Positions 1-61,929 of a stretch of 64,000 nt of DNA are shown here, piece by piece. Below the pieces are notes generated by a model, which saw only the letters and a list, made by a program, of their open reading frames with translations, searched no databases and had not been told where the DNA came from. The position numbers were made by a program, and so were the translations under genes. Source of the DNA: Sphyrna mokarran (lineage: Eukaryota); NCBI GenBank assembly GCA_024679065.1, contig JAGIQG010000009.1:58962001-59026000 (forward strand). The letters run 5' to 3'. Within the stretch, counting starts at the first letter, position 1; each line of letters begins with the position of its first letter.

Positions 1-1012
1 GTTTGAAAAACCCAGACCGCCTCTTCATGTACTTAAAACAGCAACGGATTTCAAATTCACCAGACCAGACTGATTTGGTCAGATTTGGACAGAGAATTGA
101 GCATTATGCAGAAAAAGATTTTTAAGATTAAAAGGTTCCAGAAACCTGGTGAACAAATAGATACATTTATGAATTACCTGTATCAACTGACTAATGGTTG
201 TCAATATGCTGATCGTAAATCTGAGTTGCAACCAATAACACTTTTTCTAACCTACTACAATTTATTGAGGATTTAATTTTGGAGATGGCAACAGTTAGTC
301 AAAAGTCCATCAGCAAAATAATCATAATCAGAGGAAAAGACAAACCATGGTTCAGAATGACCCCAATGACAATGATACAGGTTATTAAACAAAAGATTAC
401 CAAAGACATCAGTCAAAAGAGACTTTATGGAACAAAATTCAAGGTGCCAAAAAGCCCTACCAGATAGAACCATGTCCAGCTTTTATTGTAAAAGAGTTGG
501 ATAATTTGAAATGGTGTGTGGAATTAAAGCCTCTGGATATACAGATGACCACAAAAGAATTTTTGCACACAAGGCTATTAACGAAGTAGAGGAACAATGA
601 TGTTTCCCAGGTGAGATCAAAGACCCAAGATACACTTTCTGGAATGCAAACATTTTTGTTAATGGCCAGACCACTAATTTCAAATTGGATACAGGAGCAA
701 TTGTAACAGTCCTGTGTGGTAAACCACCATTGCTAGTAAACATGTGGCTGAAGATATCTGAAAACGCATTATGTGGTCCAGAGAACTCACGCTACTAGGC
801 ACAGGCATGTTACAAGCACAGCTCCAATACAGGGACAAAGAGAAACTGGAAACATTGCACATGATTCACAATCAAAAATTGTCTCTTCCAAGCAAAAATG
901 CCTGTGTTGACCTCATCAAGATGTGGAGATCCCGGCGTTGGACTGGGATAAACACAGTAAGAAGTCTCACAACGCCAAGTTAAAGTCCAATAGATTTATT
1001 TGGTAGCAAAAG

Positions 1013-1052
1013 CCACTAGTTTTGGAGCGTTGCTGCTCCTTCGTCAGGTGAG
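1013..1052 (-). ncRNA. Hammerhead ribozyme relic
   Basis: UCAC-CUGACGA-A-GGAGC agcaac GCUCC-aaaa-CUA-GUGG; GAAAG box damaged. Confidence 0.6.
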
Positions 1053-2206
1053 TGGGAGTTCTGTTCACAAACAGGGCATATAAAGACACAAACTCAGTTT
1101 ACAAAAAAAATGTTTGGAATATGAGTATTTTCAGGTAATTAAGTCTCAAAGGTACAGTCAATGTGAGTGGAGAGAGGGTTAAGCACAGGTTAAAGAAATA
1201 AGTATTGTCACCAGCCAGAATAGTTAGTGAGATTTTGCAAGCCCAGGCAAGTTGTGGGGGTGACAGATAGATGTGACGTGAACCCAAGATCCTGACTGGG
1301 GCTGTCCTCGTGCAGAATTTGGCTATCAGTCTCTGCTCAGCGACACGTGACACGTTGAAAGCTCTGGAGAAGGTGTCGTAGCTTCTCTGCTCTGGGGAAG
1401 TACTGGTCGACAAAAGGTACTTTTGTCCACCGTGTCCTGTGTTTGTCTTCTGAGGAAGTCAGCGTGGTTTTTTTGCTGTGGCATGTCGGAACTATCAACT
1501 GATGAATCGAGACCATATTCTGTTCTTATAAGTCATCTTTCAGCGTCTGGAGGTGTCTGTTGCGGTCTTCCTCATCTGAGCAGATCGTGTGTATGTAGAG
1601 CACTTGTCTGTAGCAGATGGTTTCTTTAAAAGGTGTTTCGGGCAGAAGCTGGAGAAGTGGAGCATCGTGAGGTTATCCATAGGCTCGCAGTACAGTGAAG
1701 TGCTGAGGTAACCATCCTTGACAGAGATGCGTGTCCAAGACTGCAACCGATTCTGGAGAGTAGTTCATGGTGAGTCTGATGGTGGGATGAAACTTATTAA
1801 TGTCATCACATAGTTGTTTCAATGATTATTCACCACAAGTCCAAAGGAAGAAAATATCATCAATGTATCTAGTGTATAGCATTCTCCAAGGTGGCCTTCA
1901 CAACACGCAACAGCGCAGAGTTGCTAAGCAGAGACTGATAGCCAAGTTCCGACACGAGGACAGCTTCAACCAGGATCTTGGATTCTTGTCACCCTGTCTG
2001 TAACCCCCAAGACTTGCCTGGGCTTTCAAAATCTCACTAACTGTCCTAGCTGGAGACAATACACATTTCCTTAACTGTGCTAATGCTCTCTACATTCACA
2101 TTGTCTATACTTTAGAGACTTGATTACCTGTAAAGACTCACATTCCAACCATTATGTAAAATCAGTTTCTGTCTTTATAAGTCCTGTTTGTGGACAGAAC
2201 TCCCAC

Positions 2207-2247
2207 TCGCCTGACAAAGGAGCAGCATGGGCTCCGAAAGCTAGTGG
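2207..2247 (+). ncRNA. Hammerhead ribozyme relic (G8>A)
   Basis: UCGC-CUGACaA-A-GGAGC agcaugg GCUCC-GAAA-GCUA-GUGG. Confidence 0.65.
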
Positions 2248-2320
2248 CTTTTGCTAGCAAATAAATCTGTTGGACTTTAACCTGGTGTTGAGAGATTTCT
2301 AATTGTGTTGACCTCATCAA

Positions 2321-2474
2321 GATGTGGAGATGCCTGCACTGGACTGGGGTAAACTGAGGTAACAGTCCAATAGGTTTACTTGCTTGCAAAAGCCAAATTT
2401 GGTAGCGAAAGCTAGTGGCTTTTGCTACCAAATATACCTGTTGGACTTTAATCTGGTGTTGTGAGACTTCTTAT
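2321..2474 (-). mobile_element. 154-bp mini Penelope fold-back copy (3' tail plus inverted pLTR end)
   Basis: Begins with the family terminus gatgtggagatgcc, ends with inverted ...gtgagacttcttat; flanked by the same 17-mer (2304-2320, 2475-2491). Confidence 0.8.
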
Positions 2475-58902: not shown

Positions 58903-59051
58903 TTAGCGCCGAGCCAAGTTGCACGGTTCCATTGTCACAGCCACACCAACACCACTCCTGCCTGAGGTCATCTCTGTCACTTCTGTCCATTGGCCAGTGT
59001 CTGGATCAAAGCATTCTACGCTACTAAGAAAATCTTGTCCATCATAACCAC
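58903..59051 (-). CDS. KEAP1: Kelch-like ECH-associated protein 1, last coding exon (Kelch repeat 6 + C-terminal region)
   Basis: tttttatttacag|GT GGT TAT... (G)[65 protein letters not shown] is diagnostic of KEAP1. No upstream exon found in the window. Confidence 0.93.
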
Positions 59052-60735
59052 CTGTAAATAAAAAAAAGTACATTAAAATGTGAATGCTTTGCATCTACTG
59101 AAATTAACATTCCTGCAGTTCAGCTTTGACTATTTTTTTCTCTCCACAGATGTTGTCAGATCTGCTTATGACCATTGCTGTCTCCAAAAAATTTAAACTC
59201 TAATTAAAATTGAGTGAATTTATGTTTGTGACCTCGACAAAATACCTGGCAGTATTGGGGAAACTTGCATATTGTCATTTCTGAACAGCCAACAATGACG
59301 CTATGTAGACTGCAGACTAAATTCAAAGAGAGCTATACGAAATCCATTTGCATATCATAATCTAGGCTGGACAATAGGAGTTTGCTTGTCCAAGACAAAT
59401 GATCTGCAACCTTCCTTTCAATTCTTAATGGATGAGACATTTAATGATCTCTGGATTCAGACGTGGGATACATGTCCTTTATCAAAGATGTGTTATCAAA
59501 GACAGTGTGGAAAGATGGGTGGCATGTAACATGGGCCTCTGGCTTGTGGAACCAGTAATATTTCCTTGCTAAACTACAAAGTCTCAGTCTGCTTTTTATC
59601 TGATTGGCAGCCTTATGTGCCATCTACACAGCTTCTGTTCCATCTCTTATGAGACAAGTTCATCTGTACATGCCTCTCATTGTGTGATTGCAGGATCTTA
59701 ATTGTATCTGCTATTGAAGTTTGTCTGTTTCATTTTTGGGCTTAAAGTGCAATAAATATTTTCAGTTAAGTTTACATCTAGAAAAATTGAAAAACTGGAA
59801 AAGTTTTTTGCTCACTGACATCTTGTGAAGGGATGCCTTATTGGAATTTGAGTCTGGACTTCAGGACTCAAAATAATATTTATTTTCTATATGGTTTCTG
59901 CACTCCAAATCTTTCTTTGCACTCATGTAGCAAAAGTGGGATAAAGGGGACAATATTGTGACCTTCCTGCATATTGAGGTTGTGCAAGTAAGCTAACTTT
60001 TGAGTTCCCTCTGAGGTTAATAGAAAATTGGATCTCACCAACACTGAGGGACTGGGGAAAAATGCCATTTATAAAGGAGTAAGGAAATCAAAACTGTTTG
60101 TGGAATGGTGGTGAGAGAAATTAGTGTGTTTAAATTAACACCTTCCATGTCCATAGGTAGAGGTAGAGATAATCTCACCTGCCTGCTCCCCAGCAGTGTA
60201 AACCAAATAAAAGAAATTGCAAGTCTTGGTTTAGTGGTTGCGCTCTGGATTCTTGTGTGAGAATATCAATGACATTTTTGTTGTTGGAACAGATTCTTTT
60301 CTTTCTTTTGGATATCTTTACCCAAGTGCAAAAGCACAATGAGCCAATAAAGTTGTGGGGTGAAGCCTCATTCCAAAGACTTGAATCACTTCAGCACAAT
60401 AAATAGAGTGCCATCTTTTTCATGAAATGTTGAACTCTCACTCAATAGGCTTGCAATTATCCAATAATTCTGCAATACTGTTAGCAGGAATTTACTTGGC
60501 ATGCTTGCCTATAATGACTACACTTTAAAAAGTACTTCATTAGCCAAGAAAGCAGCTTAAAACAAAGTTATTTCTTCCTTTTAGGGGAGAAAATTATATA
60601 ACTTTCCCAAGATGACAAAGGCATGCCTGGTTAGAGATTCTCATGATGTGGAGATGCTGGCACTGAACTGGGATAAGCACAGTAAGAAGTCTCAACATCA
60701 GAGTAAAGTCCAAAAGATTTATTTAGTAGCATAAG

Positions 60736-60772
60736 CCACAAGTTTTCAGAGCACTGCCCCTTCATCAGGTGA
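60736..60772 (-). ncRNA. Hammerhead ribozyme, stem III point mutant
   Basis: Same as 60896-60932 except GAAA-aCUU. Confidence 0.65.
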
Positions 60773-60895
60773 GTGGGGGTTATGTTCACAAACAGGGCAT
60801 ATGTAGACACAAACTCCATTTACAAGATAATCGTTGGAATCTGAGTAAATGGAGTTTGTGTCTACATATGCCCTGTTTGTGAACACAACCACCAC

Positions 60896-60932
60896 TCACC
60901 TGATGAAGGGGCAGTGCTCTGAAAGCTTGTGG
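60896..60932 (+). ncRNA. Minimal type I hammerhead ribozyme, core intact
   Basis: UCAC-CUGAUGA-A-GGGGC agu GCUCU-GAAA-GCUU-GUGG; palindromic stem III, triplet CUU. Confidence 0.75.
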
Positions 60933-61929
60933 CTTATGCTACTAAATAAACCTGTTGGACTTTACCCTGGTGTTGAGAGACTTCTTACTAGAGATTCTGA
61001 AGCAGACAGCACTATTGTCCTTGGAGGAGTAGGGAAGCCAGGAGCTCAGGACTCACTTGCTGATTTTGGATTGTTTTGCAACGATCCTAAAGGTAAGTTT
61101 ACACATGCAGCCTTTTTGTGATAACCTTCAGCATAGCTGAACAGTGCGCAGGTATACCATCTATGATCCTGAATGCTACTTATTTGGAACTGACAACATG
61201 GAATTTGCATCATTAGGAAAGGAAACATATTCGACAAAGTGAACTTTGAACATCAAAATATGTAATATGTTTAGTGCAGTTGATCCAAAATTAGTATGAA
61301 AACCACATCAGCAGTTTTCCTGGAACAAGACTCAAAGGATTAACAAAACCAATGGCAATTTTTCTAGAAGTAAACTTAACTGAAAATATTTTATTGCATT
61401 TCTTTATTTAAGCTCAATAACGAAACAGACTTTAGTTTAATAGCAGATACAATCAAGATCCTGCAATCATCATTACCTTTGTTCCCAAAGGAACTATTCA
61501 GTTTATTTTTGATGAATGTTTTGTGCTGAAAGTGAATATTAGTGTTGAAAAAAGAAGCACTAACAGTTGGTCAATGCAGCAGAGACTAGAAGATAATTTT
61601 CCTTCTGCATTTTTATCTCCCAAACATGAGTGTCAATCAAACAAAACATTGCAGTGAATTTTTCAGTTATTCTGAATGGTAAGCGCTGGGAGACTAGATT
61701 TCAGAGGACCCTGACAGATAGACATTCTGCTAATCTAGACTGGGTTTAGTTTTAGATTGCATTGATGAGCTGGTGCCCCTCAAGTAACGTACTTAAACAC
61801 TTGCATTAAGATGTGCTTAATCTAGCTTCATGAAATATATGGAACTACACTGACAGCTGTCTGCAACTATATTGAATAGGGTTAAAAAGAAACAGAACTG
61901 CTTACCATTTTAACCCTGTTCTGTTCATA

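Follow-up and report, generated by a model that had tools for sequence, protein, structure and literature searches.

Hammerhead motifs in the window

The window, 64,000 nucleotides of a Sphyrna mokarran contig (JAGIQG010000009.1, positions 58,962,001 to 59,026,000, forward strand), carries small hammerhead motifs within fragments of a Penelope-like element. Eight copies had been predicted, and a family covariance model, the check proposed with them, ranks exactly these eight at the top of the window (30-55 bits, E 3e-13 to 4e-6), two of them having been among its 56 training rows. The ninth-ranked match, at 18.5 bits, lies below all eight. A further, more decayed copy, absent from the original prediction, was found beside the motif at 27756.

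1013..1052, minus strand: hammerhead motif, G12 lost and one base deleted, triplet CUA (30.3 bits)
2207..2247, plus strand: hammerhead motif, G8A, inverted partner of 1013 (38.3 bits)
5379..5413, minus strand: hammerhead motif in the 3' pLTR, ORF-sense, intact core and AGCU, triplet CUC, stem II damaged (52.4 bits)
7235..7269, plus strand: hammerhead motif, G12A, inverted partner of 5379 (46.3 bits)
18581..18616, minus strand: hammerhead motif with C3U and damage to both stems, within a solo pLTR fragment at ~18505-18722 (31.1 bits)
27724..27753, minus strand: ninth hammerhead motif, badly decayed and with a G at position 17, paired in inverted orientation with 27756
27756..27792, plus strand: hammerhead motif, G10.1A and G15.2A (30.9 bits)
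60736..60772, minus strand: hammerhead motif, G15.2A (46.7 bits)
60896..60932, plus strand: best of the hammerhead copies, with core and AGCU intact, triplet CUU, a 4-bp stem I and a 5-bp stem II (55.3 bits)

All eight predicted copies have the extra A after A9, and their triplets are exclusively CUA, CUC or CUU, within NUH as claimed. The proposed consensus, CUGA(C/U)GA-A-stem II-GAAA-GCU(H), was overstated, being complete in two of the eight (5379 and 60896); G15.2A removes the palindrome from 27756 and 60736. Stem subfamilies can be recognized in two stem I types and in differing stem II sequences, with both stems and the core intact in 60896 only. The stem II pairing GACA/UGUC holds in 7235 and fails in 5379, where it would require a 1-nt loop and where stem II contains a G-G mismatch.

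No single window copy folds better than its own shuffles (z -0.95 to +1.3), so that the structural support is comparative, not thermodynamic. Comparison with the Rfam hammerhead models, also proposed earlier, gave no match at E<=1 in a scan of the window or at E<=10 in a scan of five loci. Rfam matches to mir-653 and EF0820 at 60750-60931 are produced by the inverted repeat there and were rejected.

Insertions that carry the motifs

Most motif copies lie in recognizable insertions, delimited by blastn and tblastn against a near-full-length copy in the case of insertion 1.

920..2303, no single strand: insertion 1, Penelope-like element, 5'-truncated and internally deleted (minus), joined to an inverted 3' piece (plus); the minus part holds tail, pLTR and an RT fragment at ~1348-1878, the inverted 3' piece is at ~1882-2290
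2321..2474, no single strand: second short insertion in the same target, tail (minus) plus motif 3' half (plus)
5279..7329, minus strand: insertion 2, 5'-truncated element whose 5' end carries an inverted pLTR (~7100-7329, plus)
60645..60988, no single strand: insertion of two inverted pLTR ends only, tail at left
63761..63842, minus strand: pLTR 3' end and tail, without motif

A 17-bp duplication flanks insertion 1 (903-919 and 2304-2320), and a third copy of it (2475-2491) follows the second short insertion, whose motif 3' half reads GAAAGCUA onward from ~2406 on the plus strand. Insertion 2 holds part of the RT (RVT_1, E 3e-4 for 6175-7032), thumb, zinc-finger linker, GIY-YIG, 3' pLTR and tail; it matches the near-full-length copy at 94% over 1.8 kb (tblastn E 1e-171) and has a flanking duplication of 11-13 bp. 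The arms of the 60645..60988 insertion (60690-60823 and 60845-60978) are 95% identical, and its duplication is 12 bp.

Seven of the eight copies occur in inverted pairs and hence could not dimerize in cis, and the window holds no head-to-tail arrays of hammerhead units. Three of these pairs (1013/2207, 5379/7235 and 60736/60896) are the inverted arms of single insertions, so the window copies are not independent of one another. The description of the motifs as dimer-type thus draws on their geometry and on the literature; no window element carries two complete motifs on one strand.

The source element

The placement of the motifs in Penelope pLTRs was confirmed at all 29 loci selected by their RT. 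In every one the motif is on the sense strand, 3' to the ORF, and the sequence continues past H17; an upstream same-strand pLTR match is additionally present in five. The element's protein combines an RT, a zinc-finger linker and a GIY-YIG nuclease, with profile matches just under Pfam's cut-off (RVT_1, E 1.6e-4; GIY-YIG, E 1.8e-4), and the examined copies share a single-ORF design and are frameshifted. The linker, read from translations, is C-X4-C-X2-C, which falls within the CX2-5CxxC definition of PMC8557442. The same order of RT, linker and C-terminal GIY-YIG characterizes the EN+ Neptune and Nematis elements of that study, as do 5' truncation, partial tandems, an inverted 5' copy and a tail, whereas Penelope and Poseidon lack the cysteine linker. 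Of the features expected of a Neptune-type element, pLTRs, an inverted 5' copy and a 30-40 nt tail are present as well. Its closest named relatives are in sharks (67-87%), followed by turtles (~45%). The element is likely a Neptune-type Penelope-like retrotransposon; the RT tree covers homologs that carry no clade name, and the placement in Neptune rather than Nematis is tentative.

In near-full-length copies a first motif precedes the ATG by 96-101 nt and a second is found on the same strand 3.02 kb downstream; these two are likely dimer partners. With the ATG downstream, protein-coding constraint on the motif was rejected: the motif is outside the ORF, and codons do not explain its conservation. 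The 3' ends of the element are bimodal, at ~+60 and +95-100, and AAUAAA is fixed 9-16 nt after the cut site in 213 of 245 parsed copies. An RNA search listed 22 runs, none containing half of the words, and the four RNA runs aligned to a near-full-length copy consisted of contigs from which a start or end signal was absent.

Covariation and base preferences

The covariation of the stems claimed originally was borne out. In the alignment (A1, which leaves out 2 of 58 haplotypes, L019 and L026, for their long insertions), 81.5% of cells are paired against 71.9% when shuffled, and there are 78 double changes against 25, with 0 of 500 shuffles doing as well; two of five covariation measures fail to exceed the shuffles. 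Slid controls pair in 24-44% of cells. Distance clustering into subfamilies gave mostly singletons, and stem II haplotypes were therefore used instead. On a tree built from flanks only, which is short (~100 columns), 21 changes in stem II pairs 1-3 fall on internal branches; 20 of these result in a pair, eight of them being double, and the switch of stem I pair 2 from G-C to A-U is a single event. The ten internal G8 changes on this tree may be due to 30 loci picked for G8A and to paired arms.

The motif is far more abundant than chance would give: exact cores number 59,674 genome-wide, against 65 for a reversed-pattern control. Position 7 is free (C 24,256, T 24,371, A/G 11,047), position 17 avoids G (951, against 48,627 with H), and position 9.1 is non-A in 1,932 sequences against 59,674 with A. 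At the CpG formed by positions 7 and 8, the harmless product is T7 and the lethal one A8, and T7G8 outnumbers C7A8 by 24,371 to 10,186, a ratio of 2.39; a control CpG in the tail gives 6,159 to 5,368, or 1.15. The control counts are genome-wide, since a local control from flanking CpGs left one usable copy only. At C11.1pG12 the asymmetry is small and close to the control (19,485 to 14,831, ratio 1.31).

Among 40 readable copies from 864 kb of unselected DNA, nine have an intact core. Here 9.1 is A in all 40, G10.1 is present in 37, 11.1 is C in 26 and T in 14, 15.2 is G in 35 and 16.2 is C in 38. Back-to-back pairs contain 40 of 57 copies, and for 9 of 57 a neighbour lies less than or up to 4 kb away on the same strand. 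The genome also contains a second family with another palindrome, ACGU.

Topology, boxes, NUH triplet and covarying stems together uphold the assignment as minimal type I hammerheads. The covarying stems, the free N7, the H17 without G and the asymmetry between T7 and A8 argue that the fold was selected in the source elements, as had been suggested; these elements were likely under such selection, and inserted copies decay.

Relation to known hammerheads

Motifs of this kind, the AGCU form included, have already been described in other animals, and what we add is one more family, from a shark. Cervera and de la Pena (2014, PMC4209133) reported a palindrome without a loop, an additional base following A9 and pairs on opposite strands. 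Their minimal hammerheads share with ours the type I topology, the CUGANGA and GAAANNUH boxes, the missing loop 3, the palindromic 15.2-16.2, the additional base that separates 9 from 10.1, G10.1-C11.1, several covarying families in each genome, an A-rich 3' flank and a prevalence of single copies or opposite-strand pairs. The AGCU palindrome, put forward earlier as a special and perhaps undescribed variant, stands in 5 of the 56 rows of their Fig. S3 (S. mansoni 1 and 3, Adineta vaga 2, Philodina and Chrysemys picta), and the schistosome motif that they assayed appears to be AGCU, as read from the machine-extracted figure. Differences lie in the host, no cartilaginous fish being among their 40 listed species; in copy number (59,674 exact cores here, ~4,000 in coelacanth and ~9,000 in Xenopus by another search method); in stem II (3-5 bp here, 7-8 bp in schistosomes); and in the many copies here with G10.1-U11.1. 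The shark family extends this 2014 class and changes no model.

Canonical type I hammerheads and non-LTR retrozymes have core, topology and dimer logic in common with our motifs, which lack the stem III loop and the Rfam match of the canonical form. Non-LTR retrozymes are head-to-tail arrays, whereas the copies here are inverted or solo. A preprint (bioRxiv 10.64898/2026.07.22.740005) reports retrozymes in one chondrichthyan and traces retrozymes back to pLTRs. Literature searches for shark or chondrichthyan motifs turned up no paper on the present family; shark motifs may be listed by Lunse et al. 2017, and chondrichthyan ones may be named in that preprint.

Proposed function and mechanism

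We consider it probable that these minimal hammerheads belong to the pLTR of a Penelope-like element, likely of Neptune type, that they were likely selected, that they are predicted to self-cleave as pairs joined through AGCU, and that the window copies are mostly relics. Ribozyme function in the active elements is a prediction from sequence. Dimer cleavage of these hammerhead variants was reportedly described by Lunse and co-workers in 2017. A motif on its own is unable to close stem III, since a loop for that stem would not fit. We propose a model in which a transcript running through both pLTRs would fold into a double hammerhead whose stem III consists of 4 bp, AGCU/AGCU. This would cut after CUH, slowly and probably helped by the element's protein, and would release a unit-length RNA. 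Reverse transcription would begin past the cut site, at a distance of ~60 or 95-100 nt, which implies that the template is uncut there or has been re-ligated. Truncation with inversion would then scatter solo and back-to-back copies, and these would lose G8 and G12 through CpG decay.

The motif, a hammerhead by descent and fold, might instead have been retained as a signal for protein binding or folding, or else as a ribozyme that works with help from a protein and needs no RNA dimer. One Penelope element has been studied in vitro, PAc, a Poseidon element from Anolis carolinensis: its motif cut only in the presence of the element's protein, and core mutants left insertion unchanged (Frangieh et al. 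2024, PMC11167929). PAc resembles our element in having a hammerhead at the pLTR-ORF junction and, at the tail, two 3' ends separated by some 30-40 nt; its ORF starts inside the motif, whereas here the ATG lies 96-101 nt downstream of H17. The published activity of such motifs is low. Also in keeping with this explanation are the 29 RT-selected copies that run through the cut site, the weakness of stem I in one subfamily (of 98 sequences with an intact core, 24, mainly from one subfamily of low divergence, have only two contiguous pairs there) and the computed energies, which do not favour a double hammerhead: its median of -9.5 kcal/mol does not improve on two open monomers (2 x -5.3) and lies far above the dimer MFE of -21.0 kcal/mol. 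Against it, a free position 7 and a position 17 that admits anything but G follow a catalytic rule, not that of a binding site, and both families keep a palindrome at 15.1-16.1 (AGCU or ACGU) for which a monomer has no need. We regard a role of this kind as unlikely.

Conservation might also reflect mere repeat ancestry, the stems and core never having been selected in this lineage. Any high-copy repeat yields many near-identical matches, and inserted copies do decay freely, as the 9 of 40 intact cores and the 14,831 copies with G12A attest. Descent alone, however, does not predict repeated double changes in stem II, a fixed core in which N7 and H17 are free, or a CpG asymmetry of 2.39 against 1.15, nor do codons account for a motif outside the ORF; this explanation is largely refuted already, and we think it very improbable. 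That the host has co-opted window copies as working ribozymes can hardly be credited: two copies have an intact core and a GC-rich stretch at ~37.6-38.4 kb could be a host promoter, but two intact of eight matches the decay seen elsewhere, and the partner motifs are mutated and on the opposite strand.

Returning to selected, paired ribozymes, it is tempting to speculate further, although we doubt that it will hold, that nature has run a mutational scan of a ribozyme in this genome, with catalytic G8, a G-free cut site and the palindrome selected, and that AAUAAA and dimer cleavage form a switch between mRNA and circular template. If so, polyadenylated mRNA would stand against a cut, circularized template copied across its own ligation junction, and ~60,000 intact cores from many subfamilies would reveal selection although cleavage is dispensable in vitro. 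The role of the ribozyme in Penelope transposition has been called unclear (PMC8557442), and the size of the shark family permits a test of selection on it. The asymmetry between T7 and A8 is one such test, and it speaks for the core having mattered in those elements that spread.

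Hammerhead motifs in the window

The window carries minimal Penelope hammerheads, as the original prediction recognized, and the motif is real, well supported and of a known kind, housed in a new host family. Its descriptor (cuganga / gaaannuh), an extra base after A9 (position 9.1), the G10.1-C11.1 pair and the 15.2-16.2 palindrome are already reported in PMC4209133, as are families that covary and motifs paired on opposite strands at distances of 100-700 bp. The AGCU palindrome of the loopless stem III is not the special variant that had been proposed, since a loopless G-C stands in 5/56 published rows, turtle Chrysemys among them (PMC4209133, Fig. 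S3). Cartilaginous fish are absent from the listing of that paper, and our literature search found no shark description of the motif family; hammerhead retrozymes derived from Penelope terminal repeats (pLTRs) are described in one chondrichthyan (bioRxiv 10.64898/2026.07.22.740005).

All eight predicted copies lie at the positions assigned to them, and a family covariance model, trained on 56 stem II haplotypes and including two of the eight, recovers exactly these as its best window matches (30-55 bits; next 18.5 bits). Each has the extra A after A9 and a CUH cleavage triplet. The consensus written for them is fully satisfied by two (5379 and 60896), and six deviate, which leaves most of the list broken. 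By window start they are:

1013: GAAA box broken
2207: G8A
5379: consensus satisfied
7235: G12A
18581: C3U
27756: G15.2A
60736: G15.2A
60896: consensus satisfied
27724-27753: ninth copy, more decayed, with G17, back to back with 27756

Six of the motifs form three pairs, each made up of the two inverted arms of one insertion flanked by duplications of 11-17 bp. An Rfam scan gave no hammerhead match in the window or in 5 sampled loci, and none of the window copies, folded singly, folds better than shuffles. Because no one element of the window holds two complete motifs on one strand, cutting in cis by these copies is unlikely. One 17-bp target duplication occurs in three copies (903-919, 2304-2320 and 2475-2491), recording two successive Penelope insertions at the same site.

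Evidence for selection

Across 56 haplotypes, 81.5% of alignment cells in the stems are paired, against 71.9% after shuffling and 24-44% in slid controls, and double changes number 78 against 25 in shuffles (0/500); the numbers of pairs and of pair types are no higher than in shuffles. As these shuffles ignore the relatedness of haplotypes, stem changes were mapped on a tree built from flanks only (143 copies). There, stem II pairs 1-3 show 21 internal changes, of which 20 result in a pair, 8 of these being double, whereas the switch at stem I pair 2 highlighted in the original prediction is one event. The same tree, weak and drawn from a sample including 30 loci chosen for G8A, has 10 internal G8 changes, which therefore count neither for nor against selection.

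The pattern of variable and invariant positions is that expected of a hammerhead: all four bases occur at N7, position 17, just before the cut site, is G in 951 copies versus H in 48,627, and 9.1 is non-A in 1,932 versus A in 59,674. A low-divergence subfamily with stem II of GACAC type (sampled loci L003, L130, L045 and others) has G10.1-U11.1 and often only 2 contiguous stem I pairs; this reflects either relaxed selection or alternative pairing.

The exact core with AGCU and H occurs 59,674 times in the genome, 48,627 with a pyrimidine at position 7 (control 30) and 11,047 with a purine (control 35). In 864 kb of unselected DNA, 57 copies are defined by their flanks (40 in back-to-back pairs, 15 solo, 9 with a same-strand neighbour within 4 kb); the motif is readable in 40 and its core intact in 9. 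This density extrapolates to the order of 10^5 family copies genome-wide, mostly dead.

CpG decay in dead copies should yield TG and CA equally. The tail control gives a ratio of 1.15 (6,159/5,368), a thin baseline resting on a single site, and C7pG8 gives 2.39 for T7 versus A8 (24,371/10,186). It is therefore likely that source elements with the harmless T7 spread and those with A8 did not. The ratio of 1.31 at C11.1pG12 (19,485/14,831) is a weak sign of selection.

The host element

At 6175-7032 (-) a reading frame encodes part of a reverse transcriptase, with which a search of the 2.77-Gb genome gave 30,739 first-look candidates, 136 of them scored. Better copies match RVT_1 and GIY-YIG, both just under the Pfam cut-off, with a C-X4-C-X2-C linker between them, a type that marks the Neptune and Nematis clades (PMC8557442). 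The nearest named protein relatives are from sharks (67-87%), then turtle (about 45%), and an 18-row protein tree places the query within a shark clade (support 100/100). Judged from these homologs, the host is likely a shark.

In 29/29 other loci selected by reverse transcriptase, the motif is in sense orientation 3' of the ORF, and the copy continues beyond the cut site; 5/29 have an upstream pLTR match on the same strand. At two sampled loci, L140 and L141, same-strand motifs are spaced 3.02-3.03 kb, with an inverted copy just upstream, and an ATG follows H17 by 96 and 101 nt, so the motif is non-coding. Copies passing H17, to which the query was limited, end at about +60 (88/229) or +90 to +104 (100/229), fitting the published 30-40 nt tail from two RT start sites (PMC11167929). 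In 213/245 parsed copies H17 is followed by AATAAA at a distance of 8-16 nt, and a like hexamer is also 3' of the published turtle motif.

Predicted cleavage as a dimer

AGCU is self-complementary, and G15.2 and C16.2 adjoin with zero nucleotides between them, so a single motif is unable to close stem III. In near-full-length elements two motifs share a strand, and the read-through RNA of such elements may fold into a double hammerhead, which would cut after CUH. Computed energies lend this fold no support: its value (median -9.5 kcal/mol, 98 sequences) about equals that of two open monomers, with the dimer MFE of -21.0 kcal/mol well below it, in agreement with the low in vitro activity reported for such motifs. 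The assayed S. mansoni motif, its stem III apparently drawn A-U, G-C, C-G, U-A in the extracted figure, showed no cleavage in monomeric form and weak cleavage when present as a dimer or trimer (PMC4209133). For an Anolis carolinensis Penelope-like element, hammerhead cleavage is reported as protein-assisted and dispensable for insertion in vitro (PMC11167929). Contiguous stem I pairs number 6 in 27/98 sequences and only 2 in 24/98. Since copies continue through the cut site, the reverse-transcription template was either uncut there or re-ligated.

A second family and other features

Among the first 100 of 8,668 non-G15.2 matches is a second hammerhead family with ACGU, so both palindromes occur in this genome; no non-palindromic family is evident among those 100. 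Better copies of this second repeat (e.g. loci L229 and L231) carry a minimal hammerhead with ACGU, and 19 matches occur in 464 kb. Its decayed window copies are:

21123-21181 (-)
25492-25559 (+)
35304-35368 (+)
46312-46397 (+)
59129-59166 (+)

Two repeats are unrelated to the motif: a dispersed one in two copies (3116-3384 and 4920-5188, 85%) and a short SINE-like family (13763, 19312, 24126 and 27860). Another retroelement left a frameshifted reverse-transcriptase fragment at 32537-33356 (+) (RVT_1 E 4e-4). A U2 snRNA-like match at 15079-15293 (-), 35.9 bits and below the gathering score, is probably a pseudogene. The GC-rich stretch at 37600-38400 (64% vs 39% background) is possibly a host promoter island. 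An 18-bp minisatellite of about 52 units (48296-49229) adjoins a C-rich 12/24-bp array (47786-48173).
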